This document shows positions 9,179 to 63,720 of a stretch of DNA of 64,000 nucleotides, piece by piece; the first letter of the stretch is position 1; each line of letters begins with the position of its first letter. A program made the translations under genes and the position numbers. The DNA is taken from assembly GCA_027320175.1 (NCBI GenBank), contig DAHVLU010000024.1, positions 16,349-80,348 on the forward strand. Reading direction: 5' to 3'. The DNA is from Nitrososphaerota archaeon. Lineage in GTDB: Archaea > Thermoproteota > Nitrososphaeria > Nitrososphaerales > Gagatemarchaeaceae. Below the pieces are notes generated by a model. That model did not search any database. It saw nothing but the letters and a program-made list of their open reading frames with translations, and had not been told where the DNA came from.

Positions 9179-10279
9179 CTAGGCTACCTCCCCTAGTCCC
9201 CTCGTTAAAATCGAAACTGCGGCGAAGGTTGGCAGCTCGACGGTCTCGGATCTGAAGGGACCGAAGTCTGCGTGCCTTAGCCTGAACCTGGGATAGAACG
9301 AGACCTGGACCTTCACGGGCTTGGAGCTGAGCACGACGGGCGCCTCCTGAGGGTCGAACTGCGCCATGGCCTTCACCCGTGCCTTCGCCATCCCCGTGTC
9401 TCCGTGAAGGGTGCCCGCGAGCCTGAACACCCTGTGGATGTCCGTGGTGACAGACGCGTCCACCATCGCGCGCTGAGAGGCGACGGCTTCCGATACCAGC
9501 TTCTGCAACGTGCCCCCGTAATTCTGGTTGTGCTCGGCGACATAGCCGGTGACCCTCCTCGTCCACCCGGCGCCCTGCGGGCCAGCAGGCATCTTTCTGC
9601 GCAGCGTGGCAGCCATGGTCTGGGAAGGCGGGAGGGTCGAGCCGCGCATGTAGTCTGATATCTCCGCCCGCGCCTGCTGATCAAGGCGGTCAAATCGCGC
9701 GTCGAAGATGTGGAGGTGGTACCCCCTGTTCCCTGAGAAGTAGACCCTGATAGCTTCAGGCGCCACCCCGAAGTCGTCGGTGAGGAAGCCGACCACGCGG
9801 ACGGCGTGGTCCTTCGCGGCGTCCAGGCACTCCTCGCAGACCCCGTGGTATTCGACGGCAGACCCGCCGCATTTCGGGCACTTCGCCGGCCTGGGGAGCT
9901 TCCCCGACGCGTGGCACTTCTCGCAGTACCACAGGTCGTGCCCCTTCTTGCAGGGCGTGGAGATGTCAGTGGCGTCGATGTCGAAGATGAGCTCGGCACC
10001 GAGCCAGCCCTTCTCGTCTATCGGTCTGGCGGGGAATTCGTACCTGGCATTGGAGCAGTAGACAGATGAGGGCGACTGCCTGAGTATCTCGGCGAGCGCT
10101 TCGCCCTTGCTCCTGAACGACAGGTGCCTTACCATCCCCCCGCCGAAGGGGAAGTAGCCGAACTCCCTGGAACCCACGTCCTCCGGGAGCTCGATGGAGC
10201 CCTCGGCGCGGAAGTAGTATTCGCGATACGCCCCTTTCAGGAAGGCCGCCGTGCGCTCGTTCATCCAGTCATCTCGCAA
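9179..10279 (-). CDS. priS: DNA primase small (catalytic) subunit PriS
   Basis: ELIFDIDATD catalytic Asp motif, zinc-knuckle CEKCHASGK...CPKCGG, SGNRGYHLHI motif. Confidence 0.9.
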   Translation of the reverse strand: MRDDWMNERTAAFLKGAYREYYFRAEGSIELPEDVGSREFGYFPFGGGMVRHLSFRSKGEALAEILRQSPSSVYCSNARYEFPARPIDEKGWLGAELIFDIDATDISTPCKKGHDLWYCEKCHASGKLPRPAKCPKCGGSAVEYHGVCEECLDAAKDHAVRVVGFLTDDFGVAPEAIRVYFSGNRGYHLHIFDARFDRLDQQARAEISDYMRGSTLPPSQTMAATLRRKMPAGPQGAGWTRRVTGYVAEHNQNYGGTLQKLVSEAVASQRAMVDASVTTDIHRVFRLAGTLHGDTGMAKARVKAMAQFDPQEAPVVLSSKPVKVQVSFYPRFRLRHADFGPFRSETVELPTFAAVSILTRGLGEVA

Positions 10280-11098: not shown

Positions 11099-11566
11099 CT
11101 ACCTCTCGTAGGTGCCTACTATGCGCGCCTGCTCGAGGATATGGTCCGAGATGGCGCTCAGGAGGCCTGCCCGGTCGAGCCCCGGCTTGAGCCCTAGGTC
11201 GGCCCCGAGGGCGTAGACCCAGAAGTAGTAGTGATGGACCCCGTGGCCGTTCGGGGGATAGGGCCCCATGTAGCCCTCCTTGCCCGTGTCGTTGACGCCA
11301 GGGGTGAAGGCGGTCGGTTTCTGCCCTTCGGCCAGCTTCGTCACTTCCGCAGGGATGCCGTAGACGACCCAGTGGGTGAAGCCGTGCGGCAGCGGAGCAT
11401 CAGGGTCGTGGCAGATCAGCGCGAACCCCTTGGTCCCCTTCGGGGCACCGCTCCACTCGAGCGGCGGGGATTGGTTGCCGACGTCGCCGCCGAACTTCTT
11501 GTCCATCCTCCCCGAGGGCCCGAACGCGGGGCTGGTCATCCTGAGGCTGCCTAGCTTCAGAGGCAT
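11099..11566 (-). CDS. YbhB/YbcL (PEBP / Raf-kinase-inhibitor-like) family protein
   Basis: SPPLEWSGAPKGTKGFALICHDPDAP...FTHWVVYGIP...GHGVHHYYFWVYAL. Start trimmed to the ATG at 11566 (ORF track starts at 11683). Confidence 0.85.
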   Translation of the reverse strand: MPLKLGSLRMTSPAFGPSGRMDKKFGGDVGNQSPPLEWSGAPKGTKGFALICHDPDAPLPHGFTHWVVYGIPAEVTKLAEGQKPTAFTPGVNDTGKEGYMGPYPPNGHGVHHYYFWVYALGADLGLKPGLDRAGLLSAISDHILEQARIVGTYER

Positions 11567-11776
11567 GGACTCTGCTGGGCCGGCGGCCTTGGATAAGGGT
11601 TCCTTGGTCAGAGGGGGTGAATCCTCCATATGTTGGTCAGGCGGTCCAATTGCTGGCGGACCATGCGAAGGGCCCGGGACCAATGCTGTTGTTCCGGCCG
11701 GCTTCGACGCGTCAGAGATGGGCAGCCCGATGTCGGGAGCGTTTGCCTATGGAACTGCCGCAGTCGTGGAGCGTGA

Positions 11777-11806
11777 CACCCCGAAAGCGGACCCGGTCTC
11801 GCTTCA
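11777..11806. repeat. Left copy of an imperfect inverted-repeat pair (partner 16773-16803)
   Basis: CACCCCGAAAGCGGACCCGGTCTCGCTTCA versus the reverse complement of the right copy, CACCGAAGCGGATTTGCCCCGGTTTCGCTCA. Shared blocks are CACC, GAA, GCGGA, CCCGGT, TCGCT and CA, with indels. Confidence 0.35.
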
Positions 11807-11900
11807 ATAGTGAAGGCAGGGAGACAATTTCGACCGAGTGTCCCAAAACGGTTTCCAAACTGCTCAACGCTTAATATCCGACCCCGCCGAGCCCGTCCCG

Positions 11901-12677
11901 TTGTTTCTGGCCAAGACTGCGACCGCCAACGAGTGGAAGGCGATTGCCGCTGCGGTCAAGACGCTCGTAGAGGAGGCGACGTTCGAAGCCAACAGTGAGG
12001 GCCTGTCCTTCAGGGCCATGGACCCTTCTCATGTGGCTTTGGTCGACCTGACCCTGCCAAATTCAAGCTGGCAAGCATATCAGTGCGACAAGCCATTCAA
12101 GTTCAGCGTGCGTGTAGAGGACCTTGTCAAGACCATGAATCGTTCAGACCCGAAGGATTCGGTAACCATTGCGGACAGTGATCCTGATTCGAAAGAGGAT
12201 GCATCGGACGAGGGAATCTGGGTCGTCTTCGAGAACGGCTATAAACGCAAGTTCAACATCCATCTCATTGAGAGCACGGCCGGGGCCGCCCCAATTCCCA
12301 AACTCGACTTGCAGGCAAAAGCCACTCTTACGATGAAGATTTTCGAGAAAGTGCTTTCTGACGTAAATGTGGTCTCAGACCAGGTGACGATTCAGGCAAC
12401 GGCGGACAAGCTATCGTTCTCCGGCAAATCGGATGTTGGCAAGGCCAGCATTACCCTCGCAAAGAACGACGCCGACGTGTTGGAACTGCACTCGGAAGTG
12501 GAGAACAAGGCTACATATTCGATCGACTATCTGAATTCTATTCTTCGCGCCCTTTCGGGGGTAGCAGACACGGTTCAGATTCAGTTCAGCACGAAGAAAC
12601 CAATTCGAACTGAAATGTCCCTCAATTCGCAGGGAGCGGTGCTGGCACATTTTCTCGCTCCTAGGGTTTCTGATTAG
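11901..12677 (+). CDS. pcn: DNA polymerase sliding clamp PCNA
   Basis: FLAKTATANEWKAIAAAVKTLVEEATFEANSEGLSFRAMDPSHVALVDL and a C-terminal AHFLAPRV are PCNA-like. TTG start at 11901 sits ~29 nt after TATA-like CTTAATAT. The ORF track start at 11838 adds a non-conserved extension. Confidence 0.85.
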   Translation: MFLAKTATANEWKAIAAAVKTLVEEATFEANSEGLSFRAMDPSHVALVDLTLPNSSWQAYQCDKPFKFSVRVEDLVKTMNRSDPKDSVTIADSDPDSKEDASDEGIWVVFENGYKRKFNIHLIESTAGAAPIPKLDLQAKATLTMKIFEKVLSDVNVVSDQVTIQATADKLSFSGKSDVGKASITLAKNDADVLELHSEVENKATYSIDYLNSILRALSGVADTVQIQFSTKKPIRTEMSLNSQGAVLAHFLAPRVSD

Positions 12678-12679
12678 TC

Positions 12680-13228
12680 TCAGAGACTAGCTTCGGGCCT
12701 CTTGTGAATGCACACACCTCCCCTTCCACCCCCTTTTGAGAAGTTGCAGTTCATGCACAACACGGCATACCCTGCCGGAAAGCCGTTTCGTATCAGCCAA
12801 GAGTTAAGGCGGAAGCTCCCCCTCGGCAACCCTAGTGCTTTGACCTGCTTGTTATCGACGCCGTCGACATGATCGATGGTCAGAAAATCCACTTCAGATT
12901 CCCCGCAACAAGCGCATCTGTAGGCGCCGGTAGAATAGTGGCCAAGTACCATCTTCCTGGCTTCGGCCCTTTGCCTTCGGGCGCTTTCCCGTGCCATTCT
13001 TCTCACTTGTTCGGGCCTTTCTGACATTCTCCTCAGATACGCACGGCGTTGCCACTCGGCGTTCTTCTTTCTGAAACAAGAAAGGCAGTATTTCTGAGGC
13101 CAGCTGAGCACCTCATACGGCTGGCCGCACAATATGCACAGTCTGGCGACACCATGTGGTCGTGGTGGAGGAGCGTGGCTACTCGTGTGCGTCCCCTCCT
13201 GAAGGAACCTCTCCTCCCGAAGTAGCAT
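12680..13228 (-). CDS. Zinc-ribbon + HNH endonuclease (paralog 1)
   Basis: N-terminal LCILCGQ...KYCLSCF ribbon, basic helical linker, then CACCGESEVDFLTIDHVDG...NSWLIRNG...LCMNCNFSKG (HNH). ATG at 13228 or 13264; either overlaps the upstream paralog. Confidence 0.8.
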   Translation of the reverse strand: MLLREERFLQEGTHTSSHAPPPRPHGVARLCILCGQPYEVLSWPQKYCLSCFRKKNAEWQRRAYLRRMSERPEQVRRMARESARRQRAEARKMVLGHYSTGAYRCACCGESEVDFLTIDHVDGVDNKQVKALGLPRGSFRLNSWLIRNGFPAGYAVLCMNCNFSKGGGRGGVCIHKRPEASL

Positions 13229-13697
13229 GGCCTCGCGCCCGAGTCTTGTGCACGCATTCCCCATGCTTGGCTTTGCTCATGTTGCAGTTCTGGCACAGCA
13301 CCTGGTACCCGGCCGGGAGTCCCTTCTTGACGAGTAGATAGTAGAAACTGCTCCCCAGCCGCCTGACTATCTTGCGTTCCGCGGATCCGTCGTTGTTGAT
13401 GTGGTCCAAAGCAAGGAACTCCGGCTGCATTTCGCCGCAGCAGGCGCATGCCATGGTCCCGTACGAGTAGTGCGAAAACACCTGCTGCCAAATCTTCGCC
13501 CGGAACCGTACGGAAGTCGCTCTTCCCTTTGCCCTGTAGTGCTCTATGTTCCTGCGACGAGACCTTGTCGCACTTTCCAATATGACTGTCGGCAGACACC
13601 TCTGACAGTACTTGGCGTGGCCACTTCTAGACCTGAACTGCTGTCCACAGACCGCGCACTTGAACGGGTTCTTCGGAGGCGCGTATCCACCCATCAA
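13179..13697 (-). CDS. Zinc-ribbon + HNH endonuclease (paralog 2)
   Basis: FKCAVCGQ...KYCQRC ribbon, then CACCGEMQPEFLALDHINN...LCQNCNMSKAKHG. Same architecture as the downstream paralog. Confidence 0.8.
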   Translation of the reverse strand: MMGGYAPPKNPFKCAVCGQQFRSRSGHAKYCQRCLPTVILESATRSRRRNIEHYRAKGRATSVRFRAKIWQQVFSHYSYGTMACACCGEMQPEFLALDHINNDGSAERKIVRRLGSSFYYLLVKKGLPAGYQVLCQNCNMSKAKHGECVHKTRARGHATSGGEVPSGGDAHE

Positions 13698-13718
13698 CAG
13701 TCGACCTTGCCGGTCCCC

Positions 13719-14147
13719 TTAACGTCCAATCCCCCCCACGAACATCCCCAGCTCTTCCATTGTATAACACACCACGTCCGCGTGCTCCATCACAGGCCCC
13801 ACGTACTCCTTCACCTTCGCCGCGGCGGCCTGGGCCACCTCTGCCAGCGCCACGCACCTGACCGATGGGTTCACCTCCTTGACCCTTCTGAACTTCCAGT
13901 CCACGTAGGCCGCATTCTTCTCCATCCAGGTGAGCGCAATCCCCCTCCTGCTGGTGCTCTGCCAGCACTCTATGACCATCTGAGAGTTTGGGAGATAGAA
14001 GTCGACCACATACGACCTGCCGCCCACTGGGAAGACGGCGTGGGTCATTCTCGTAATGCCGTACTGGAGGAGGACCCCCTCCACCCGCTCCTCCTGCTCA
14101 GTCAGAGGGACGAGAGCATGCATCCTGTTCATCCATCGAGTTGACAT
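13719..14147 (-). CDS. PD-(D/E)xK-fold nuclease-like protein (DUF559/Vsr-like core)
   Basis: YVVDFYLPNSQMVIECWQS resembles the vDF...lvIEvdG core of DUF559/Vsr-type endonucleases. Start is ~30 nt downstream of the palindromic TATA. Confidence 0.55.
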   Translation of the reverse strand: MSTRWMNRMHALVPLTEQEERVEGVLLQYGITRMTHAVFPVGGRSYVVDFYLPNSQMVIECWQSTSRRGIALTWMEKNAAYVDWKFRRVKEVNPSVRCVALAEVAQAAAAKVKEYVGPVMEHADVVCYTMEELGMFVGGIGR

Positions 14148-14176
14148 GGTTGGCCACAGATAGTATGGAAATGAGC

Positions 14177-14183
14177 TATATAA
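14177..14183. promoter_or_regulatory. Palindromic TATA box (TATATAA) in the divergent intergenic region
   Basis: About 30 nt from the ATG at 14147 on the minus strand (near-leaderless). About 50 nt from the TTG at 14233 on the plus strand, with GGAG at 14221-14224. Confidence 0.5.
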
Positions 14184-14232
14184 CTACCACAAAGGTTTTA
14201 TCATGCGCATCTGACGAAATGGAGCTTGAATC

Positions 14233-16707
14233 TTGCCATTTAGTCGCCAGATGGCCTTGGGCGCTCGTTTCGTGGCCTTCGGAGGTGAGGATGAGTTCCC
14301 ACACGCAGAAGTAGAACGTGTAGTCTTTGACGCCCTCCGTCGGGATAGGCAGAGTACGGTGGCAATCATGGCAGATGGGATCAACCTTGATCGCCTTCAT
14401 CTCCCCGACTCGGCCCGTCTCGACCCGAAGCGCGACTACCGCTGGTCCGGATATCTCGTCCAGAGGAAAGTCCAGAAGCGCGCTAAGCGAGTTATCTTTG
14501 GAACCTATGCCGGGTGGTTCCAATGGTATATGCGATATCAAAGATTCAGGGCGTTCCATGCGGTCGTACTTATCGAACCTCGGTCGGCAGTCTCGGACGG
14601 TGAGGTGGGGGGTTATGTCGACGGCCTCCTGGCGAGGCTGCAACCCAAAATCCGAACATTAGTCATAGTATCAAAAGATGCAGGCGAAGTCCACCCTTCG
14701 ACAGATGAACGGCGCACCAAGGAGGTCGTCAGGGCTCTTCTGTACGGTACAAGGTTGACGCGGCCAGAGGTCTTGCGGCGCCTCGGTTTGACTTTCGTTC
14801 CCATTTCAGACGCTACGGTTGCGAAAGTGTTCCCAAAGCACGCCTGGCGTATCTCGAAAAGGCACCCTCGCTACCAGTTAGACGAGTATGAGGATGAACT
14901 GGTACAGGGGATGGTGCCATGGTTCCCTCCGGGTTATGTTGATGGGAAACCGGACCAGATAGAGCAGCACTTCCGGAGAGAACGGCGGTTCAAACGCGAG
15001 CTTGAGTTCCCGGACGACATGCTTGCGTCAAGAGCCCTCGAAGACGCAGGGAGGTCCCTGTGGGTGACAGCTCCCTATGAGAGCGAGAAGTTACGGGAGT
15101 GGCTCGAGCTACTCAACAAGAAGGAAGACATCAGACTGGAAAAGGTTCTGAGACTAAAGGAAGAGGTGCCCGCCGACCAGTGGCAGCGGCTACTGTCGCC
15201 GTCAAGTTACCAGGTGAGACGAGTTCTTGACAGGTTGGCATCCGAAGGAAAGTTGGAGAAGAGAAAATGGTACCGCGAGCAGGGGCGGCCGGCCATGGCA
15301 TATGTGGAGCGAGGTAAGGCACCGTTCTCGGAAAATCGGTGCGGCCGGTGCGCCTTTTATGCCCCGGCCAAAAGGAGATGCAACCTCTGGTGGCTGGCGA
15401 ATAAGACCGAAGTGTTCTACGGTCCTAAATGGAAGCAACCCGGTTCCCACGCCACGAGATTCGAACTCCATAAGATGCGATATTCTTCGAGGATAGGCCC
15501 GCGTTCCTCTGCTTGCTTCCGGTTCTTGGACAAGAAGCGGGATCACCTTAGGAAGGCGATTCCAGACCGTTGCGAGATTTGTGGCCAAGCACTCTCCGGA
15601 GTCGGCAGAGTTGCAGTTACCTGCCTTCACTGTAAGACAGAATATGTGAAAACCGAGAAGTACGATTCACCAAGGGTGCGGGTCAGGGTCGCCTATGAAC
15701 ACGAGTTCAACCGCGTCTACACCGAAGTAACAGGTGGCGTCGCAAGAACAGACATGCAAGCGTGGAAGAAGAAGGTGAAGGAAGAAATCAACTCACCACG
15801 GCAGGGTTCAACCGAAGACCGAGAGGACTCGCAGGCAGAAGAACATGAAGAGGCCGAGGCAGAACCACCAAGGGTTTGGCAGGAGTACGACGCTGTGCTC
15901 CAGGCAGGCGTAGACAGACTCGCATTGGAGACCGACATAACCAAGTTTCTTTCCATCGCAATGGCGGAAAGCGCCCTTAACGCGACCCGCAGGATTGCCC
16001 AATTCGCGAAGTTGAACGTGAACGACGTGGCCTTGCCAGTAGCTAGGATTGAGCGATACCTCGGCTTGATTAGGGGGGCACCTGCAGACAAATTCCTCCA
16101 GTATGAAGCGCAGGTAATGAAACAGTATTGGCAAGTGTATGGGCTCGCCGTGGCGGGGACGGAGCTCTGGGTCGGGCCGAGGAAAAGGTCAAGGTTCGTG
16201 CGAGAGCTTGTGAATACTGATGCTGGGAGAGCGACAGGATACTCGCCAATGGACTCGGCGATAAATTGCCTTCACCAGAGGAGGCTGAGGCAAGCCGAGC
16301 GAGTCAACCGAGAAGTGGGATACGCCGGGAGGTGCGATGGCTTTCTACACCGAAGACACCACAACTCGAGGAGGAACGGTTTGGTTTTCGATTTGATAGA
16401 TCCTTTCAAGTTCGCGGACAGAGAAGAGTTACTTCTGGTAGCTCTAGACCGGGGATTAACGTGGGAAAACTTCGGGATTGAGACTGACAGGAGGGGTTCG
16501 ACGTTCTATTACCCGATGAGTTCTAGTCTTCGAAAATTGAACGAGATTGGAGAATCCGCGGACAATCTTGTCGTCGAGTATGAGGGGAGAGCCATGCGGC
16601 TGATAGCGGCGTATAGGTTGCATGCCGAAAGGATGTTGGAATGGCTTGGAGCTCAGCGTGTTTCTGAGCCCTCGGATGTGTTCATTTTGAGGTTTCCAGC
16701 GGGATAA
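14233..16707 (+). CDS. Large fusion protein: N-terminal HTH/wHTH + zinc-ribbon region, acidic linker, C-terminal Cas1-like catalytic domain
   Basis: C-terminus: YEAQVMKQYW (Glu625), SPMDSAINCLHQRRL, DGFLH (His706), LVFDLIDPFK (Asp720/723), then Cas1-type terminal helices. N-terminus: wHTH-like SSYQVRRVLDRLASEGKLEKRKW..GRPAMAYV, CGRC (370), CEIC (447), CLHC (464). TTG start at 14233 with GGAG 8 nt upstream; first ATG is at 14251. Confidence 0.8.
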   Translation: MPFSRQMALGARFVAFGGEDEFPHAEVERVVFDALRRDRQSTVAIMADGINLDRLHLPDSARLDPKRDYRWSGYLVQRKVQKRAKRVIFGTYAGWFQWYMRYQRFRAFHAVVLIEPRSAVSDGEVGGYVDGLLARLQPKIRTLVIVSKDAGEVHPSTDERRTKEVVRALLYGTRLTRPEVLRRLGLTFVPISDATVAKVFPKHAWRISKRHPRYQLDEYEDELVQGMVPWFPPGYVDGKPDQIEQHFRRERRFKRELEFPDDMLASRALEDAGRSLWVTAPYESEKLREWLELLNKKEDIRLEKVLRLKEEVPADQWQRLLSPSSYQVRRVLDRLASEGKLEKRKWYREQGRPAMAYVERGKAPFSENRCGRCAFYAPAKRRCNLWWLANKTEVFYGPKWKQPGSHATRFELHKMRYSSRIGPRSSACFRFLDKKRDHLRKAIPDRCEICGQALSGVGRVAVTCLHCKTEYVKTEKYDSPRVRVRVAYEHEFNRVYTEVTGGVARTDMQAWKKKVKEEINSPRQGSTEDREDSQAEEHEEAEAEPPRVWQEYDAVLQAGVDRLALETDITKFLSIAMAESALNATRRIAQFAKLNVNDVALPVARIERYLGLIRGAPADKFLQYEAQVMKQYWQVYGLAVAGTELWVGPRKRSRFVRELVNTDAGRATGYSPMDSAINCLHQRRLRQAERVNREVGYAGRCDGFLHRRHHNSRRNGLVFDLIDPFKFADREELLLVALDRGLTWENFGIETDRRGSTFYYPMSSSLRKLNEIGESADNLVVEYEGRAMRLIAAYRLHAERMLEWLGAQRVSEPSDVFILRFPAG

Positions 16708-16772
16708 AGGGTTCATTGCGCCTCTGCCGGAGGTGCCCCCTCGTCTCATGCATCCCTCCAAGCTTAAATGCA

Positions 16773-16803
16773 TGAGCGAAACCGGGGCAAATCCGCTTCG
16801 GTG
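16773..16803. repeat. Right copy of the imperfect inverted-repeat pair (partner 11777-11806)
   Basis: TGAGCGAAACCGGGGCAAATCCGCTTCGGTG. Lies between the rpl44e TATA (GCTTAAATG, ~16762) and its start codon. Confidence 0.35.
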
Positions 16804-16808
16804 AGAGG

Positions 16809-17087
16809 TTGAAATTCCCAAAGGAGATACGCAGGAACTGCCCGTGGTGTCATAAGCACACGGTCCACTCCGTCGCTCTCTACAAGAGAGGGAAGGAGCG
16901 AGCAGGTTCGTGGGGAGCCAGGAGGCAGGCGGGGAGGAAGCGCGGCTACGGGGGCCAGAAGTTCCCTGAGCTCATCAGGACCGCCAAGACCACCAAGAAG
17001 GCGACCCTGCGGCTGAAATGCAAGGATTGCAACCGTGAAATGATGACCTACGGCATAAGGTTGAGGAAGGCGGAGATCGCGGCATGA
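16809..17087 (+). CDS. rpl44e: 50S ribosomal protein L44e
   Basis: CPWCHKHTVH...KCKDCN zinc-binding L44e pattern. TTG start. Confidence 0.9.
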   Translation: MKFPKEIRRNCPWCHKHTVHSVALYKRGKERAGSWGARRQAGRKRGYGGQKFPELIRTAKTTKKATLRLKCKDCNREMMTYGIRLRKAEIAA

Positions 17088-17281
17088 AGCGAGACAGGGA
17101 GCCGATCCCCAAGCCGAAGAGCACCTTCCTCCTGGTCAAGTGCCCCGACTGCAGCGAAGAGAGGATCCTGTTCTCCAACTCGTCGAAGGACATCGGATGC
17201 AGGGGCTGCGGAAGGAAACTTGCCGAGAGCAAGGGCGGCAAATCTGTCGTCCTGGCCACGGTCGTGAAGCGGCTAGGTTAA
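17084..17281 (+). CDS. rps27e: 30S ribosomal protein S27e
   Basis: FLLVKCPDCSEERILFSNSSKDIGCRGCG zinc ribbon. ATGA overlap with rpl44e. Confidence 0.9.
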   Translation: MKRDREPIPKPKSTFLLVKCPDCSEERILFSNSSKDIGCRGCGRKLAESKGGKSVVLATVVKRLG

Positions 17282-17314
17282 ACGCCAAATACCACGTATT
17301 TTCGCTGAACCGAT

Positions 17315-18115
17315 ATGAGCGTTGAAAGGCCACTTCCTGACCCGGGCGAAGTGGTCGTATGCACGGTCAGGGAGCTTACATCTCACGGCATCTACGTCAA
17401 CCTCGACCAGTACGACGGGACCAACGGCTTCCTACACGTGTCCGAGATATCTACCGGCTGGGTCAGGAACATCGACAGGGTCGCGAAGGTTTCGCAGAAG
17501 CTGATTCTGAAGGTCATACGCGTCAACAGGGCCAGGAGAGAGATTGACCTCTCCCTCAGGCAGGTGACCAACGAGGAGAGGCGCGCGAAGGTCATCGAGT
17601 GGAAGAGAGAGGAGCGTGCGCTCGCCATCGTGGACGCCGTGAAGAAGAAGCTGGGGGTCGACGACGTCAAAGAAAGGGAGATCAGGCGCAAGCTTGAAGA
17701 GGGGTTCGGCACCCTGTATGACGCCCTGGAGACTGCGGCGCGCAAGGGACCGGAGGGCCTCGCGCATGCAGGGCTCACGGACAAGGAGGCGAAGGCAGTC
17801 GCCGAGCTCGCGAAGGAGAAGATCATCCCTCCGAGGTATGAGGTGGGAGCCCTGGTCGAGGTGTCGTCTAGGTCCCCCGAAGGCATCGAACAGGTGAAGA
17901 AGACCCTCATGGCCGCAGCCAGCGCTCCCTCGGCCGAGGTCCACATCACCTATGCAGGCGCGCCGCATTACAGGGTCAGGATAACTGCCGACGACTACAA
18001 GCAGGCAGAGAAGGCGATGGACTTCGTCCTTGAGAAGATCAAGGACGGCGTGGGCAAGCACGACGCGTTCAGCTTCAAGCGGGAGATCTCCAGGAAGTAC
18101 GGCGGCGCGTCGTGA
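17315..18115 (+). CDS. eif2a: Translation initiation factor aIF2 alpha subunit
   Basis: S1 domain (GEVVVCTVRELTSHGIYVNLDQYDGTNGFLHVSEISTGWVRNI) followed by helical and alpha-beta domains. Confidence 0.9.
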   Translation: MSVERPLPDPGEVVVCTVRELTSHGIYVNLDQYDGTNGFLHVSEISTGWVRNIDRVAKVSQKLILKVIRVNRARREIDLSLRQVTNEERRAKVIEWKREERALAIVDAVKKKLGVDDVKEREIRRKLEEGFGTLYDALETAARKGPEGLAHAGLTDKEAKAVAELAKEKIIPPRYEVGALVEVSSRSPEGIEQVKKTLMAAASAPSAEVHITYAGAPHYRVRITADDYKQAEKAMDFVLEKIKDGVGKHDAFSFKREISRKYGGAS

Positions 18116-57576: not shown

Positions 57577-58190
57577 GGCGCCGGAAGTCGGCGACGGCCC
57601 TCTTCGGTCAGTTCGTAGACAAAGGGCTTGGAGGTGTCGTTCCGTCTTACGAGCCCCGACTCGAACAGCGCCTTCATGATCCTTGCCGTGTGCTCTCGAG
57701 ACTTCCCCAGAGCATCTGTGAGCTGGCGCGTGTTCTTCGCGGCCTCGCTTAGCAGCCTCATGGCGGCCAGCTGGGTCTCGTCGAGCCCCTGGGTCGGGAT
57801 GGAGCCCACGGCGGGGGCCTGTGATGGCTGTGACTCCTGTGATTCTGGCTGTTGCGCAGGAAGGCTTGTGGTGTGACTTTCAATGGGCGCGCCCTCGGAT
57901 TGGAGGGCCACAGGGGCCACCGACGCCATCGTGGAGGGGGTACCAGCGGCCAGCGCCGCCGAGGCGGCCATGACCCTGGACTGGATGACCTCTACTCTTC
58001 CCATCATATCCAGGATGCGCGCATCCTGCTTCTTGAGACGCTCCTCCAACGAGGACCATAGGTCACGGCCCAGGTCTGTGGACGCGTTGATGCGCTCGGA
58101 GACCTGCCTGTATCTGACGAGCAAGGCGAAGGACAGGGCCACGAAGAAGAACGAAGTCGCCAGGAGGACCACCGTCGTGACGTCGACCAT
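57573..58190 (-). CDS. Membrane-anchored wHTH protein
   Basis: N-terminal TM VVLLATSFFFVALSFALLV, coiled coil, low-complexity linker, C-terminal wHTH (TRQLTDALGKSREHTARIMKALFESGLVRRN). Confidence 0.6.
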   Translation of the reverse strand: MVDVTTVVLLATSFFFVALSFALLVRYRQVSERINASTDLGRDLWSSLEERLKKQDARILDMMGRVEVIQSRVMAASAALAAGTPSTMASVAPVALQSEGAPIESHTTSLPAQQPESQESQPSQAPAVGSIPTQGLDETQLAAMRLLSEAAKNTRQLTDALGKSREHTARIMKALFESGLVRRNDTSKPFVYELTEEGRRRLPAP

Positions 58191-58322
58191 CTGTGACTTG
58201 TGCGTGGGTTCGGTTGTGATTTAAGGGTGATGCCACGGGCGCGCAACGACCGCACAGATCTAGGTCCCGAAGGGCGTCTCATCATCGCCGGCCCCCGACC
58301 CCGACGTGACTAGGCCCCTGCA

Positions 58323-58700
58323 TCACACAACGATTTTGCCAATCAAAGCCTGCAACACGCCCACAAACCGCCCAGACTCTTCTTCGGACAGCTCCCTGAC
58401 TCCGCCACCGGCTACTTCCAGCAACCTCCGGACGTCGTCTGGCTTTACGACCCCCACCCAAACCCCGATTAGCAGCGTGACAATCGACCGCCGAACATTC
58501 TCCCTGGCCTGCTGCACTGTTCGGAAGTACGATCCAACCGTCAACGGCTTGGGCCTGCCTCTGGTTCGCCCCTCAGAAGCCGCCGAGGCTGCCTCTCTGT
58601 ATCTCATCTCACCAATCGCCACCCGCAGATAGAGCCGCAGGGCCTCGAGTTGCCTCGGCGTCAGGTTCGACTGCTCGACAAGGGTTTCTGGTAGACTCAA
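58323..58700 (-). CDS. Small HTH-like protein (LTPRQLEALRLY type)
   Basis: NLTPRQLEALRLYLRVAIGEM resembles sigma-region-4/Tfx-like HTH openings. 125 aa. Confidence 0.45.
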   Translation of the reverse strand: MSLPETLVEQSNLTPRQLEALRLYLRVAIGEMRYREAASAASEGRTRGRPKPLTVGSYFRTVQQARENVRRSIVTLLIGVWVGVVKPDDVRRLLEVAGGGVRELSEEESGRFVGVLQALIGKIVV

Positions 58701-58893
58701 CGGCCACAGCTGTCAGCCAGAACTGTATTAATCATTCCGAACCCGGTAACCATGATAAACCACGATTTGCCTTGACTTGTTCATAATATTTTTATGGTTT
58801 TGGGCAGTGCAACCTAATCTTTACCAACGGGCTGGAGGGAGCGTGAGACGTTCGCTTATCTACCTCAGTTGACAGACGAGAGGGCGAGAGAGT

Positions 58894-59154
58894 TTGGGTA
58901 GGAGACGCAAGAAAACCCTTCGAGTGGTCCACAAGACCCTGCCGTCGGTCTTCGCATGCCCTCGATGCGGCTTGATTTCGATTCGTATCACATCAGAACA
59001 AGATCCTGCATCACAAGATTACGTATTTCGCGTCACATGCGGTAACCCCAACTGTCCTTTGCACGCGGGCAGAGAAATGAGGTACTCGACCAAGAGGGCC
59101 AACATAGACGTCTACAATACCTTCGTAGACGACTACGCCAAGGCCGGGGTCTGA
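58894..59154 (+). CDS. elf1: Transcription elongation factor Elf1 homologue
   Basis: MGRRRKKTL basic N-terminus, zinc ribbon FACPRCG...VTCGNPNCP, C-terminal IDVYNTFVDDY as in Elf1 (VDVYSDWID). Confidence 0.75.
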   Translation: MGRRRKKTLRVVHKTLPSVFACPRCGLISIRITSEQDPASQDYVFRVTCGNPNCPLHAGREMRYSTKRANIDVYNTFVDDYAKAGV

Positions 59155-59155
59155 C

Positions 59156-59929
59156 TTGATCGAGCTGGGTCCAGTAGAGAAATATCTCATTGAAAGGACG
59201 AAGCGGGGACCGGTAGTTGCTGCACTGATTGATCCTGAGGACTTCTCCCCAAAGCAAGCTGCCGACACCGCAGCCAAGACTATAGACGCGGGCGCAGCCC
59301 TGATCTTGGTGGGGGGCTCGACTCTGGCCGACCAGGGGAGGCTAGACACCATCGTGAAAGCGGTCCAAAGCCACACAAAATCACACGCTGGTCACACCAA
59401 ATCACACGACGTACCCGTGGTCCTTTTCCCGGGCAACATCACAGGCGTCTCACGACACGCCGACGCCATCCTTTTCAGTTCCCTTCTGAATTCGACCAAT
59501 TCTTACTTCATCATAGGAGCTCAGGCCCTTGGAGCAATCGAAGTCTACAAGAGCAAGATCGAGAGCATCCCCATGGGGTACCTCGTGTTCGGCAACAGCA
59601 GCGCGACGAGCTTCATTGGCCAGGTGAACGCCCTTCCTCCTTCCAAGCCGAACCTTGCCGTGATCTACGCCCTTGCAGCACAGTATCTTGGGATGAGAAC
59701 ACTGTACTTGGAAGCAGGGAGCGGGTCTGGGGACCCGGTGCCCCCAGAAACCATTCGGGCAGTACGCAAGACATACGACGGCCTGTTGATTGTGGGCGGC
59801 GGAATCACCACACCGGGTTCAGCAGATAAGGCGGCCAAGGCGGGCGCCGATATCCTCGTGGTTGGAAACCTCCTTCAGACCCTCGGATTCGAAAGGGTCC
59901 TGAGGCAGATTGTCGATTCAACTGGCTAG
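59156..59929 (+). CDS. Geranylgeranylglyceryl phosphate synthase (PcrB/GGGPS family)
   Basis: LILVGGSTL, FPGN, LYLEAGSGSGDPVP, LIVGGGITT. Contains a His-rich tandem insertion SHTKSHAGHTKSH. Confidence 0.8.
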   Translation: MIELGPVEKYLIERTKRGPVVAALIDPEDFSPKQAADTAAKTIDAGAALILVGGSTLADQGRLDTIVKAVQSHTKSHAGHTKSHDVPVVLFPGNITGVSRHADAILFSSLLNSTNSYFIIGAQALGAIEVYKSKIESIPMGYLVFGNSSATSFIGQVNALPPSKPNLAVIYALAAQYLGMRTLYLEAGSGSGDPVPPETIRAVRKTYDGLLIVGGGITTPGSADKAAKAGADILVVGNLLQTLGFERVLRQIVDSTG

Positions 59930-60197
59930 AGTCGACCACGTCTCACCCGCGCAGGGAGGAGGCCGTCGTAGTTGTCCCTCGCCATTTGGGCACGACGACG
60001 ATTAACGAAAGCCAACCCGACCCGACTGAATCAGGCCTTCAGGGTTTGGCAGACGCACCCACACTGACATTTGTGGGTGAAAAACACCCAGAGCAGCTAG
60101 GATAACCCATGGAACGGAAACGTAATGTCAAACGGCAATTACTTGGACGCCCTTGACGACTTCGGAATCTTATATCACTATTTGGAATGGTGAGTGT

Positions 60198-60446
60198 ATG
60201 GCATCAAGATCACACGCCGATGAGGAAAGGTCTAGACTGCAGAAAGCCCTCAAAGGACTCCCAGATTCGAAGAACCCGGATGAAACCATCCCAGTCAGGA
60301 AATCCAGTCTGGAAAACTTGGTTGAAATCTTCGACCACAAGATACGCTCGAGGAATAAGAGCATGCAATACGAAGCTCTAGTAGAGATAAGGGACTATCT
60401 GCAAAAACTCATCGATGAGGGTGTTGGTACTCAAGACGATAGGTAG
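60198..60446 (+). CDS. Hypothetical small protein
   Basis: 82-aa ORF from the ATG at 60198. Helical and charged. No recognisable motif. Confidence 0.35.
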   Translation: MASRSHADEERSRLQKALKGLPDSKNPDETIPVRKSSLENLVEIFDHKIRSRNKSMQYEALVEIRDYLQKLIDEGVGTQDDR

Positions 60447-60507
60447 TCCCACTACCGCTTCTTCCAACTCTTCGCGGCTGTTCAACTACACTGTCGTTCC
60501 TTTCACC

Positions 60508-60790
60508 TTACACCGCCGCCCGCAGTACGAACAACCCAACACCATGGGGCTCGTTTCCCGTTGGTGGTAGAGGCATGTACCCAATCATGACGACTCCGTC
60601 CTCTTTGAACCACTGGAATGGCATCCCGCCCCCTAATGGGAACGATTCTGGGGAGGCTGGCGGCATCACGCCAAGGCTAGAGATTCTCGGCTCAGCTGCC
60701 GTCTACGGCGATCCCGAGTCCCTCCTGGGGCTTTTTCTTCGAGCACAGCGGCGGGGTACTGATCACTGCCTGAAGCAGTGGCAGGGTTCA
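60508..60790 (-). pseudogene. Decayed partial duplicate of the C-terminal module of gene 60860-61738
   Basis: Minus-strand frames give ...SKKKPQEGLGIAVDGS* then, in another frame, ...PLGGGMPFQWFKEDGVVMIGYMPLPPTGNE.... The intact gene has QKKPDTAHVIMGS...PIRGGVPFQGFKEDGLILIGYMPPPPTGNE. Confidence 0.55.
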
Positions 60791-60859
60791 TTGTTATCCG
60801 AAGGAACCGGTTTCACTTTCGGAGATTTTTCGACGAGCACGAAACAGTACAAGACACGG

Positions 60860-61738
60860 TTATTCTTTCTCTTTGTCTGTTATTTTGAACGCCGCCATCC
60901 ACAGAACCATCACATGAATGTCCCGAACCTCATTGCCCGTGGGAGGCGGAGGCATATACCCAATCAATATCAGCCCATCTTCTTTGAACCCCTGGAACGG
61001 CACCCCACCCCTGATGGGTGAGAGCGTGTCCCGCGCCAGATAGACCTCCTTCGCTTCTGGCTTGAAGATGGTGGCCCACGCCTTCGACCCCATAATCACA
61101 TGCGCCGTATCGGGTTTCTTCTGCAGTTCCTTCTGGAAAGGCAAGTCCAAATCCCCAAAAGACAGAACCAGCTCTTGGCAACTCCCGAACTCGTACGGTG
61201 GTGCCTTCGCGTTCCCGGTGGACTGGTTGTGGTCGACATCGGCTGTTATCCTCGCGAACACGGGGCGCAACTTCGAAGTGGCGCCAGGGTCGCTCGACAG
61301 CGTCAGGAGGTTGTTTCCCGCTCCAAGTATCGTGGGGTTTCCAACCGCTTCGAACTTCACCTCAGGCGGACGCCTCCTGTACCGCAGTCCCATCTGGGCC
61401 CCACGCGGCTTGCCCCTCTCGCCACCTTCGACTAGAATCGCTTCGTATCTGACCCCCTGAATCGTGAGGTAGCCCGCCCACGCAAGCGCATATCGCTCGG
61501 CTTCTGAGGGTACGGCCAGGAGCGCCTGCCGGGCTTCTTCGAACCCGAACTCGAGCCTCTCCCGCTTGAATCCCTGGATATACTGCCCCGAGGGCAGCTC
61601 GATCACCGCAAAGGGAGCTTCCTCTCCCCTCCCAGCTACTTGAGCGCTGAATTCCTGGAGAGCGGCCAGCATCAGTTTGAGCAACTTCGGGTTATCGTCT
61701 AGCTCCGGCAGCCCGGTTTTCGGATTGTCAGCGCTCAT
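60860..61738 (-). CDS. Hypothetical protein (292 aa from ATG 61738)
   Basis: Two-part protein. No family recognised. Its C-terminal module is duplicated in degenerate form downstream. Confidence 0.5.
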   Translation of the reverse strand: MSADNPKTGLPELDDNPKLLKLMLAALQEFSAQVAGRGEEAPFAVIELPSGQYIQGFKRERLEFGFEEARQALLAVPSEAERYALAWAGYLTIQGVRYEAILVEGGERGKPRGAQMGLRYRRRPPEVKFEAVGNPTILGAGNNLLTLSSDPGATSKLRPVFARITADVDHNQSTGNAKAPPYEFGSCQELVLSFGDLDLPFQKELQKKPDTAHVIMGSKAWATIFKPEAKEVYLARDTLSPIRGGVPFQGFKEDGLILIGYMPPPPTGNEVRDIHVMVLWMAAFKITDKEKE

Positions 61739-61790
61739 CTTTTCGGTCCTTGGCGCGTCTTTGCTTCCTCTTCCTAGCAGATTCATGCTC

Positions 61791-62276
61791 TCAGAACCGT
61801 ATGTCTCGTCCCTCCGGCTTGAGCTTCGAACAGTCCGGGCAGAGCCACACTGGGATGTTCGCACCATCGAGCTTAGAGTCCTGGTAATCTTTCTTGAGCC
61901 ACCCTTTGGTATGACACGAATCACACGCGTAATCATCAGGGGGAGGGTTTGTGCGGGCAGACCCATTTGTGACAACGACGTGGGTTCTCACGAGCGTGCC
62001 ATACATCCCAATTAGGACGTACGCATCCATTTCGCGCTTCTCCTTGAGCGCTGTAGGAGGCAACGGGTAGAACCGGACGAGCGCCTGCGCGTCGGCGGGT
62101 TCGATGTTGGACCGACCACTACCAGTCAATCCTATTACAGCTTGCCGCAATTCCGCGTCGGCTAGATACTGGCTGACGGGGAAAATCGCAAGTGTAAAGC
62201 GATCGTCATCATCCCTCTTATCCATCACTTCGCTCCTTGGCCTTCCTGAATCGGCTTCATATAAGGGGGGATGCAC
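61791..62276 (-). CDS. Hypothetical protein with C-terminal zinc-ribbon-like CxxC pairs
   Basis: YACDSCHTKGW...WLCPDCSK. Lies 52 nt upstream of the 292-aa gene on the same strand. Confidence 0.45.
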   Translation of the reverse strand: MHPPLYEADSGRPRSEVMDKRDDDDRFTLAIFPVSQYLADAELRQAVIGLTGSGRSNIEPADAQALVRFYPLPPTALKEKREMDAYVLIGMYGTLVRTHVVVTNGSARTNPPPDDYACDSCHTKGWLKKDYQDSKLDGANIPVWLCPDCSKLKPEGRDIRF

Positions 62277-62337
62277 AACGGACGCCCTTGGTTAATCAGA
62301 AGGGCAAAAGCGGATTCCACGAGGTCGGCTAGTTAGC

Positions 62338-62919
62338 ATGGAACTCGGCGGTCAACGAGCGTCTTCTCGATTGAATTTCGCTGGGCGGAACCCTCGGCTC
62401 TTGGTGCCAGCCCTGTTCCTCCTGATCCTCGCGGGGTACGAATTCGCGACCTTCCAAACCTCCGCGTCGTTACAATCCACATTCAACCTTCCTTCAGGGG
62501 ACTACTATCAAATTAGCACGACTCGAAACCCCTCGGATACTATTTCGGGGCAGTTCCACGAGACCTCAGGGCGCCCCGTGAGTTTCTTCATTTTCACCAG
62601 CGCCCAATTCGCCGCCTTCCAGGTGGGCACGTCGTTAGACTCGGTCTACAACATCACTGACTCTGCTTCTTCGGCCATCTCCTACACTTTCAAGAACCAA
62701 GACACTTTCTATCTCGTATTCAGGCACGGAAGCGGCCTGCTCAACACCACAGAAACCGTTTACTTCCAACGAACATACACGGCGAGTGATTCGCTGAGGG
62801 CAACACTCGCATTCGTCTTCCTCATCTTCGGAGCCCTCAACTTGGTTCTCGCATTCATCAAACGCAAGCCGAAAGCCGTCGCGCCGCCTCCTCAGCCGAA
62901 CGAAACCACTTCGCAGTAA
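62338..62919 (+). CDS. Membrane-anchored protein (N- and C-terminal TM, extracytoplasmic middle)
   Basis: LLVPALFLLILAGYEFATF and LAFVFLIFGALNLVLAFI flank a Ser/Thr-rich beta-looking domain. Confidence 0.55.
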   Translation: MELGGQRASSRLNFAGRNPRLLVPALFLLILAGYEFATFQTSASLQSTFNLPSGDYYQISTTRNPSDTISGQFHETSGRPVSFFIFTSAQFAAFQVGTSLDSVYNITDSASSAISYTFKNQDTFYLVFRHGSGLLNTTETVYFQRTYTASDSLRATLAFVFLIFGALNLVLAFIKRKPKAVAPPPQPNETTSQ

Positions 62920-62928
62920 CAGAGTCGG

Positions 62929-63720
62929 TTATGGCCGAGGCACGGTGACTTCCCCTAGCTGTACCTGATTTTTAGTCAGAACACCGACATACAGCGGCCC
63001 CCTGGCTCTGATGAAACGCTCGACCCGCCACCCCGTCCCGGTGACGATCTCTTCCATCTCTCTTGGCGAGACCAGCAGGTAGTCGAACCACTCCCCCACA
63101 TGGGCCCTGTATCTTATCCGCATCCTAATCTGTCCCGCCATCCTTCCCCTGGCCCTGTTCCAGCGCTGATACCGGAGATGGTCTGGGTTGTCAGTCTTGT
63201 ACGGGTCCACGCTCGAGCAGATGATGACGGCGTCCTTGGACGTCATGGCCCACAGTTTCTTCAGCAGGCGTCTCGCCTTGTTCCTGTTGCCGAAGAGACC
63301 AAAATTGTTGCCATACATGATCACGGTTTCGAACGACCCAGAGGCGAAGGCGATATCTTCGAACGCCATCAGGCGCGTCCTCCTGATGCCCCGGGCCCTG
63401 GCCACTCTGAGGGTGAGCGGCGAGCTGTCGACACCGAGTACTTCGAGTTTTCTATACCTCTGCAGATAGAGCGCCACCCTACCCGCGCCGCATCCGACGT
63501 CGAGGACTCTGCCCTTTGCGAAGACGATTCCCTTCCTCTCGACGGAGTCCCAGTCTTTCAGCGGGGCGAAGTACCCCTGGGGGAGGGTCTCGGAGGGGTC
63601 GATTAGGCCGTCCTCCCTTTCCACGGTCTCGTGCCCCTCGCGTCGAGTGAAGTAGTCCCAGACCTCGTGGCCGTAGGCGTCGGCGTCGACACGTCTCAAC
63701 AGGGTAGGAGCACTGCCCAC
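62929..63720 (-). CDS. Class I SAM-dependent methyltransferase
   Basis: VLDVGCGAGRVALYL motif I; FETVIMYGNNFG post-motif. Confidence 0.8.
   Translation of the reverse strand: MGSAPTLLRRVDADAYGHEVWDYFTRREGHETVEREDGLIDPSETLPQGYFAPLKDWDSVERKGIVFAKGRVLDVGCGAGRVALYLQRYRKLEVLGVDSSPLTLRVARARGIRRTRLMAFEDIAFASGSFETVIMYGNNFGLFGNRNKARRLLKKLWAMTSKDAVIICSSVDPYKTDNPDHLRYQRWNRARGRMAGQIRMRIRYRAHVGEWFDYLLVSPREMEEIVTGTGWRVERFIRARGPLYVGVLTKNQVQLGEVTVPRP

Follow-up and report, generated by a model that had tools for sequence, protein, structure and literature searches.

The present study describes a divergent gene unit in a 64,000-nucleotide (nt) stretch of DNA from a Nitrososphaerota archaeon (the window; contig DAHVLU010000024.1), in which an 824-amino-acid (aa) Cas1-domain fusion protein, here called Cas1f, is encoded head-to-head with three minus-strand nuclease-type genes. 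The first of these encodes a 142-aa nuclease-type protein, p142. Cas1f and p142 are a core pair that co-occurs strictly: p142 lies divergent and directly upstream of Cas1f in all 34 assessable loci (those with the Cas1f N-terminus and 450 nt or more upstream of it), even where Cas1f identity falls to about 30%. We put at about 60% the probability that the unit is a DNA-manipulation module specific to a soil clade of Nitrososphaerales, fixed in the chromosome and inherited vertically, which combines an immobilised Cas1-family system with p142 and an exchangeable endonuclease slot, and that it is not a casposon. The literature searched holds no description of the Cas1f family, and the Cas1f-p142 pairing is previously undescribed there.

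The Cas1f-p142 pair and its conserved surroundings

The window is an archaeal chromosome segment of ~62% GC, and its closest relatives are Nitrososphaerales/Thaumarchaeota metagenome-assembled genomes (MAGs) from soils and peat. For comparison, 17 genome loci and 50 metagenome loci were retrieved. The unit is laid out as follows.

12680-13264, minus strand: HNH_A, 194 aa as the longest open reading frame (ORF), 182 aa from 13228
13179-13697, minus strand: HNH_B, a 172-aa ORF
13719-14147, minus strand: p142, a 142-aa ORF and the first gene of the minus-strand operon
14148-14232: divergent intergenic region, putative promoter/operator
14233-16707, plus strand: Cas1f, 824 aa from TTG 14233

The sequence-level statements of an earlier sequence-only reading of the same DNA, which had placed three nuclease-type genes head-to-head with the Cas1 fusion, all held up when checked. 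That reading took the nuclease operon and Cas1f to be a genuine divergent unit, and the constant position of p142 together with a conserved intergenic block bears this out. Its proposed neighbourhood check gave a split answer: p142 accompanies Cas1f throughout, whereas HNH genes stand behind p142 in only five lineages.

The intergenic block spans ~75 nt and is conserved in 29 loci, even where Cas1f identity is only about 30% (consensus A.AGTA.G..AATG.GCT[A/T][A/T][A/T]TAA.CACCACAARGGTTTTATC). Two TATA-like elements, TATATAA (14177-14183) and TTTTATC, lie around ACCACAAAGG. The second of them is contained in an invariant 17-mer, ACCACAAAGGTTTTATC (14186-14202), which occurs once per locus and solely at the intergenic position. 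A GGAG at 14221-14224 stands upstream of the plus-strand TTG at 14233, as had been noted before. The TATATAA reported earlier was found again in its place, but the idea of a single palindromic TATA gives way to a block with two such elements. We regard the block as a putative conserved back-to-back promoter/operator. An Rfam scan of 12.5-16.9 kb returned no family, and a sigma-70 promoter scan, which is not applicable to archaea, found none. The TTG position is kept across the relatives, with an ATG at the same place in locus L006; therefore, we take TTG 14233 as the true start and 824 aa as the full length of Cas1f. An NCBI-derived copy (P0280) is recorded at 725 aa, a length consistent with a gene call from the internal invariant Met94 that misses the conserved N-terminus (window 14233-14530).

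Beyond the pair itself, a shared housekeeping neighbourhood, with markers including SpoU, a methyltransferase (MTase), L10e, Dph2, GINS51, PriS, PCNA and L44e, surrounds the unit in 26 of the 32 loci that have at least 5 kb of flank, despite protein identities of 30-60%.

Domain composition of Cas1f and p142

Cas1f is divided as follows; its catalytic residues are given in 818-aa numbering.

about 14251-14850, plus strand: N-terminal alpha/beta domain without a P-loop
about 15013-15306, plus strand: helical region and winged helix
15340-15660, plus strand: two zinc (Zn) ribbons
about 15787-15888, plus strand: acidic linker
about 15928-16704, plus strand: Cas1 catalytic alpha-domain
16105, 16348, 16390 and 16399, plus strand: catalytic residues E619, H700, D714 and D717

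The C-terminal ~260 residues are a Cas1 catalytic domain. Each of E619, H700, D714 and D717 is at least 90% conserved in the family alignment (A1), and all four were confirmed in the window. The H/D/D residues align with H208/D218/D221 of E. coli Cas1 when the family is compared with that protein by hhalign, in a 25-column match that serves residue mapping and is not proof. Equivalents of the E. coli set E141/H208/D218/D221, by which Cas1 membership is judged, are all present in Cas1f, and with this E/H/D/D set kept the enzyme is predicted to be catalytically intact. The window protein scores 16 bits against Pfam Cas_Cas1 (PF01867), below the cut-off of 22.3; the same model matches 12 of 21 Cas1f homologues at E<0.01 (best 2.1e-7), and the relative P0168 clears the threshold with 45.5 bits (7e-12). 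The PADLOC Cas1 model matches the window protein directly (E 1.8e-5). A Cas1f family profile search did not recover canonical Cas1 proteins, and PDB sequence searches with Cas1f and with its profile gave nothing useful. Close homologues number 36, and relatives only 124 among 1.84 billion representative proteins.

An AlphaFold2 (AF2) model of the N-terminal 560 residues (predicted local distance difference test, pLDDT, 77.5) comprises the alpha/beta domain without a P-loop, the winged helix and the two zinc ribbons. An Orc1/Cdc6 or helicase identity for the N-terminal domain was considered and dropped, given Foldseek template modelling (TM) scores of 0.11-0.20, E of at least 1e-3 and the lack of a Walker A motif. 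The relatives split into two groups, of which group B has longer proteins (about 890-920 aa) carrying a ~70-aa, beta-looking insert at the site expected for the Cas1 N-terminal domain (A1 columns about 620-700; P0034-P0036, L008-L016). Where group B has this insert, a low-complexity acidic linker stands ahead of the alpha-domain in the window protein (residues about 513-546); in the AF2 model, residues 480-560 form helices and disorder only, and no Cas1 N-terminal beta-strand domain was found in the window protein. Judged from these sequences, the window's group appears to have lost the Cas1 beta-domain and to carry the acidic linker in its place.

Degraded and distant members of the family were also seen. 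L010:1360-2063 is a decayed Cas1f in which an internal deletion joins residues about 42 and 614, and L069:9428-9754 and L017:10001-10357 retain a C-terminal remnant only, at the syntenic place; Cas1f may thus have decayed and been lost in some lineages. Two distant relatives, P0168 (863 aa; L072:5983-9233, with an overlapping 220-aa gene upstream) and P0208 (1166 aa; L073:2211-8861, next to a metallophosphatase and a DEAD/DEAH helicase that has an MZB domain), retain the winged-helix, Zn-ribbon and Cas1 part and differ in N-termini and neighbours. The genes called in both loci include no Vsr-like gene of p142 size, though no homology search was made there. The fusion family extends beyond the p142-linked clade.

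As to p142, its 111 homologues all come from Nitrososphaerales-type MAGs, are unannotated and carry no Pfam domain (0 of 111). The motif YVVDFYL...MVIECWQS, noted earlier, was confirmed in the ORF translation. Invariant residues are E14, E15, D44, E55, R62 and K80 (137-aa numbering, alignment A2); the canonical Lys position is occupied by Trp57, followed by Q/R/K, and the resemblance of the ECW motif to the GCFWH of Vsr was drawn by eye only. The AF2 model (pLDDT 92.2) has the restriction-endonuclease-like alpha-beta-beta-beta-alpha-beta fold. Its Foldseek matches in the PDB, at TM about 0.5-0.55, are all PD-(D/E)xK nucleases (the Can2 nuclease domain, AF1548, XisH, Mus81, Bax1 and Cas4 SSO0001), and XisH (2okf) has the best target-normalised TM-score among them, 0.58. 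Against viral models (BFVD), 29 matches reach E<=1e-3, led by DUF559 proteins and including Vsr endonucleases and a PD-(D/E)xK protein, with TM up to 0.70. By contrast, a PDB sequence search with the p142 profile gave nothing useful, p142 has no Pfam or NCBIfam match, and neither membership of DUF559 (PF04480) or Vsr at the sequence level nor the canonical D...(D/E)xK triad was found. The earlier assignment to DUF559/Vsr PD-(D/E)xK nucleases is therefore right in its fold, because the AF2 model and the PDB and BFVD fold matches agree with it, and does not hold as DUF559 sequence membership. Structurally, the evidence supports a small Vsr/DUF559-like PD-(D/E)xK-fold protein with predicted nuclease activity. 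Extra p142 genes occur as tandem paralogs at L020:9014-9457 and 9490-9924, and at L001:18998-20110 a second p142, followed by a gene like the slot protein X described below, lies ~6.5 kb downstream of Cas1f without a second Cas1f.

The slot downstream of p142 and base composition

Behind p142, the position that the two HNH genes occupy in the window is filled differently from genome to genome. About 31 loci have enough DNA to be scored, with these occupants.

HNH: this window (two copies), L002, L005, L020 and L028
Two-unit protein with helix-turn-helix (HTH) and LAGLIDADG-like parts, here called X: about 15 loci, as two overlapping paralogous ORFs or one fused protein of 384-413 aa
A different protein with two LAGLIDADG-looking motifs: L041
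LAGLIDADG-like C-terminal fragments: L001 and L011
TnpB: L046
Nothing recognisable: about 10 loci

A homing-type nuclease occupies the slot in at least 21 of the loci. HNH and X are mutually exclusive, and a two-unit organisation recurs. The notion of a conserved set of three nucleases has to be given up: HNH genes are restricted to their five lineages, and elsewhere the slot holds X, the L041-type protein or TnpB. The recurrent exchange of HNH for LAGLIDADG-like genes in a single operon slot is a clean natural experiment that could show whether homing-type nucleases are recruited there or only tolerated.

X carries an invariant motif, W-x-x-x-L-x-Q-G-E-G, which can be aligned to the LAGLIDADG helices in I-HjeMI and I-OnuI with weak E values (0.3-1.2) and to that in I-CreI over 17 columns only. 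PHROG_5046 matches nine of nine X members, but its family label is HNH; no Pfam or NCBIfam match was obtained for X, and a PDB sequence search with the L041 slot protein gave nothing useful. X is LAGLIDADG-like at the motif level, an assignment that could not be confirmed. IS605-type OrfB/TnpB genes lie near Cas1f-family genes in three unrelated loci (L020:19555-21084, L046:4550-5974 and L072:9269-10507), the one in L046 being exactly in the slot.

HNH_A and HNH_B are true paralogs, being 36% identical along 159 aa (E 5e-29). As had been described earlier, each combines a CxxC ribbon, a basic linker and an HNH domain. In HNH_A, the Zn-ribbon C43/C46...C60/C63 and the linker are followed by C117ACC, D131-H132 and C170MNC-N; in HNH_B, the ribbon C14/C17...C31/C34 is followed by C84ACC, D98-H99 and C135QNC-N. 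The ribbon is CxxC-x13-CxxC in both, with CACC...DH...C(M/Q)NCN after it, and the DH and Asn residues and the CxxC/CxxC zinc site of a beta-beta-alpha-Me motif are present in both. The two genes overlap in different frames, by 86 nt if HNH_A is taken as its longest ORF and by 50 nt if it starts at 13228, reproducing both values given before. The latter start is the public gene call, and HNH_A likely begins there (182 aa). The overlap lies between the HNH_A start and the 21-aa C-terminal tail of HNH_B; p142 and HNH_B are 21 nt apart, and 2 nt separate the stop of HNH_A from that of the convergent PCNA gene.

NCBIfam and Pfam runs on Cas1f, p142 and the two HNH proteins returned neither an HNH nor a DUF559 match, and the HNH and PD-(D/E)xK assignments were made from PHROGs, homologues in phages and predicted structures. 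HNH_A matches the HNH endonuclease family PHROG_2255 (E 7.6e-9), and in its catalytic half it shares 41-53% identity with phage proteins annotated as HNH endonucleases (best E 9e-18). HNH_A has 31 relatives on IMG/VR viral contigs, where p142 and Cas1f have none, and HNH_B has only seven word-sharing homologues in 5.8 billion proteins. By their sequences, the HNH genes beside p142 are of phage type. Elsewhere (L002:8724-9500, L028:8714-9570, L020:8274-9370), a single HNH polypeptide carries two tandem CxxC...CxxC ribbons, whereas the window has two separate one-ribbon paralogs.

In base composition, the GC content at third codon positions (GC3) is 0.62 for Cas1f, 0.615 for HNH_A, 0.705 for HNH_B, 0.64 for PCNA and 0.80 for p142, against a window median of 0.81. 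PCNA, a core replisome gene at 11838-12677, is also low in related group A genomes (0.63-0.68). In its relatives, Cas1f has a GC3 of 0.73-0.84, near that of the neighbouring genes. The bias towards A/T-ending codons that had been reported for this stretch is real for Cas1f, HNH_A and HNH_B, but it does not mark the unit as foreign: since PCNA is equally low, the low-GC3 patch does not coincide with the nuclease/Cas1 unit, and since p142 is ordinary and Cas1f matches its neighbours in relatives that lack the dip, the dip is weak evidence for a foreign module.

Alternative readings, proposed mechanism and neighbouring genes

The conserved neighbourhood, the decayed remnants, an old duplicate and the lack of terminal inverted repeats (TIRs), PolB and arrays lead us to favour vertical inheritance with local rearrangement over an active casposon. 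Several observations weigh against the module that we propose. Six of the 32 long loci lack the shared housekeeping markers, which indicates some relocation; the genes around the unit differ in order from genome to genome; and two Cas1f copies, 73% identical, are found in a single genome (L011/L014). The unit may therefore once have been able to move or rearrange DNA. Furthermore, the low GC3 of Cas1f occurs in this genome alone (0.62 versus about 0.8 in neighbours), the apparent replacement of the beta-domain might interfere with Cas1 dimerisation of the canonical kind, p142 has a Vsr-like Trp in place of the Lys that is canonical for (D/E)xK, and the ~10 loci with no recognisable slot nuclease speak against an obligatory third component. 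In the two-copy genome (contig CAWFZY010000001.1), Cas1f lies at about 131961-134570 on the plus strand and 146580-149249 on the minus strand, so that two convergent Cas1f-p142 units (p142 51% identical) bracket a ~12-kb housekeeping block with SRP54, Pus10, KsgA, SpoU and an MTase. This inverted arrangement may promote inversion and explain the shuffled gene order between genomes.

The sequence-only reading had presented the nucleases as casposon cargo. A mobile element resembling a casposon, or a derivative of one that is decayed or non-autonomous but still mobilisable, with Cas1f as its casposase, would suit the intact Cas1 active site, the low GC3 of Cas1f and the HNH genes in this genome, and the two-copy genome, extra p142 copies and shuffled gene order; besides, HNH nucleases are among the core genes of casposon families 2 and 3, and some casposases have Zn-binding and HTH domains fused to Cas1 (PMC4046053). 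Yet no PolB is present among the called genes within 10 kb on either side of Cas1f in the window and in L020, and the mobility of a casposon (variable sites, presence/absence polymorphism) was not seen. A search of 11500-17500 for terminal inverted or direct repeats bracketing the unit yielded no long ones, the best pairs (15-27 nt at 70-93%) being chance-like; viral-contig and plasmid collections held zero copies of Cas1f or p142; most genomes keep the same housekeeping block; the duplicate copies, at 73% identity, are old; and p142 has host-like GC3 while PCNA shares the low value. These results largely refute the casposon reading, which we now consider improbable. That the unit is a CRISPR adaptation module in degenerate or atypical form (Cas1 with a Cas4-like nuclease), or an antiviral defence that captures or cuts foreign DNA, appears very improbable. 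The Cas1 and PD-(D/E)xK pairing does recall Cas1-Cas4, Cas4 SSO0001 is among the fold matches, p142 weakly matches the PADLOC candidate defence protein PDC-S69 (E 4e-5), and a helicase and a metallophosphatase are neighbours of the distantly related P0208. Against this, neither Tandem Repeats Finder (TRF) nor a k-mer scan, which did detect the E. coli control locus L021, found CRISPR-like arrays in the window or any retrieved locus; the annotated neighbourhoods of the window and L020 contain no Cas2 or other cas genes, so the adjacent array and Cas2 of CRISPR-Cas adaptation are both missing; p142 lacks the Fe-S cysteines of Cas4 (alignment A2) and is Vsr/DUF559-like; and the neighbourhood is a housekeeping one, not a defence island.

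A narrower alternative concerns the HNH pair, which could be purely selfish homing genes of phage origin that landed between p142 and PCNA and duplicated, without functional tie to the unit, the slot being a permissive insertion hot spot. We place this not far below an even chance. It would account for the presence of HNH in only five of about 31 loci, for extra HNH paralogs nearby (beside rpl44e in L015 and upstream of the primase in L020), for TnpB in the slot of L046, for the phage HNH endonucleases as closest annotated relatives with 31 IMG/VR matches, and for a GC3 of the HNH genes (0.53-0.70) that is the lowest at the locus both in the window and in relatives. No clear co-phylogeny between HNH and Cas1f emerged from the pairwise identities, a comparison that is uninformative because all HNH pairs are 35-52% identical. 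It is harder to reconcile with a slot that is so often filled by a homing-type nuclease, with the mutual exclusion of HNH and X, with the operon-like packing of the HNH genes behind p142, and with the identity of X between the two Cas1f groups (49-56%, versus about 31% for Cas1f), which is unexpected for a decaying selfish gene. Between a recruited component and a selfish homing gene, we lean very slightly to the former.

Known systems resemble the locus in part. Casposons share with it a Cas1-family integrase with full E/H/D/D, accessory HNH genes nearby and, in some, fused Zn-binding/HTH domains (PMC4046053). They differ in that the locus has no PolB, no TIR or target-site duplication, a fixed syntenic position and no viral or plasmid copy; the N-terminal fusion of Cas1f is much larger (about 560 aa), and the Cas1 beta-domain appears lost in the window's group. 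The constant partner here is a Vsr-like nuclease, which is absent from the casposon core genes in PMC4046053 as read here; that paper describes only PolB-linked Cas1 and the inactivated Cas1-solo group. Group 1 of Cas1-solo (Methanomicrobiales) is alike in having a stand-alone cas1 with no CRISPR link and no sign of horizontal transfer (PMC4046053); it lacks the full active site, whereas the four residues of Cas1f are nearly invariant, and taxon, architecture and partner differ. Cas1-Cas4 likewise encodes a Cas1-family integrase with a PD-(D/E)xK-fold nuclease, but the locus has neither CRISPR array nor Cas2, and p142 lacks the four-cysteine cluster and has DUF559/Vsr proteins leading its fold matches. 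Phage HNH/LAGLIDADG homing endonucleases are comparable to the HNH genes in the 41-53% identity of the HNH half, patchy distribution, low GC3 and the use of one site by different families; unlike them, the genes here form an operon behind a conserved cellular nuclease gene on an archaeal chromosome, each product has a CxxC...CxxC ribbon at its N-terminus, and the two genes are paralogs that overlap. XisH, the fdxN element excision-controlling factor, is a small endonuclease-fold protein of similar size to p142 that works with a site-specific recombinase; it is 12% identical to p142, its recombinase partner is unrelated, and no excisable element was identified at the locus. In Tn7, the strand-transfer enzyme TnsB is joined by TnsA, a partner with a restriction-endonuclease fold that cuts the other strand, a logic to which that of Cas1f and p142 may be likened. 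TnsB is a DDE transposase and not a Cas1, and Tn7 has defined ends and targeting proteins.

For the vertically inherited module, we propose that the DNA-binding domains of Cas1f would direct the Cas1 domain to a particular DNA site that may include the intergenic 17-mer, where the Cas1 domain would perform 3'-OH strand transfer. p142 would contribute second-strand cleavage or the processing of ends, in the way that TnsA complements TnsB and Cas4 complements Cas1, and the slot enzyme, here the HNH pair, would make a site-specific break; alternatively, the slot enzyme would be a selfish homing gene exploiting a conserved, co-transcribed position. We infer this division of labour by analogy with TnsA/TnsB, Cas4/Cas1 and XisH. 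More tentatively, and at odds plainly short of even, the locus could represent an independent exaptation of a casposase/Cas1-type integrase outside CRISPR, in which the Cas1 fusion, the Vsr-like nuclease and the exchangeable endonuclease would carry out a programmed site-specific DNA transaction beside replisome genes; integration, excision, inversion and break-induced repair are the candidate transactions. Cas1 is known to act in spacer acquisition by CRISPR systems and in the transposition of casposons, and it also occurs as an inactivated 'solo' form. The present locus would be a fourth setting for it, catalytically intact and vertically inherited, with a new architecture and a strictly co-occurring nuclease partner. 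We know of no described mechanism for second-strand cleavage or excision by casposons, and the locus could inform how Cas1-type integrases achieve either. The three parts, Cas1f, p142 and a site-specific endonuclease, are open to biochemistry.

Around the unit, the genes of the window run in this order from left to right.

minus strand: GINS51, in the gene order left of the unit
9179-10279, minus strand: PriS, primase small subunit
plus strand: orf187, between PriS and PEBP
minus strand: PEBP, between orf187 and PCNA
11838-12677, plus strand: PCNA
plus strand: rpl44e, rps27e, eIF2alpha and Nop10, downstream of Cas1f
minus strand: AglB, beyond the rpl44e-Nop10 group

A further stretch of lower GC (51-60%, GC3 0.65-0.68) lies at 58000-63700 of the window. 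It has two ORFs without a Pfam match (60860-61975 and 62338-62919), and beside them stand a PcrB-family gene (59156-59929) and a methyltransferase gene.

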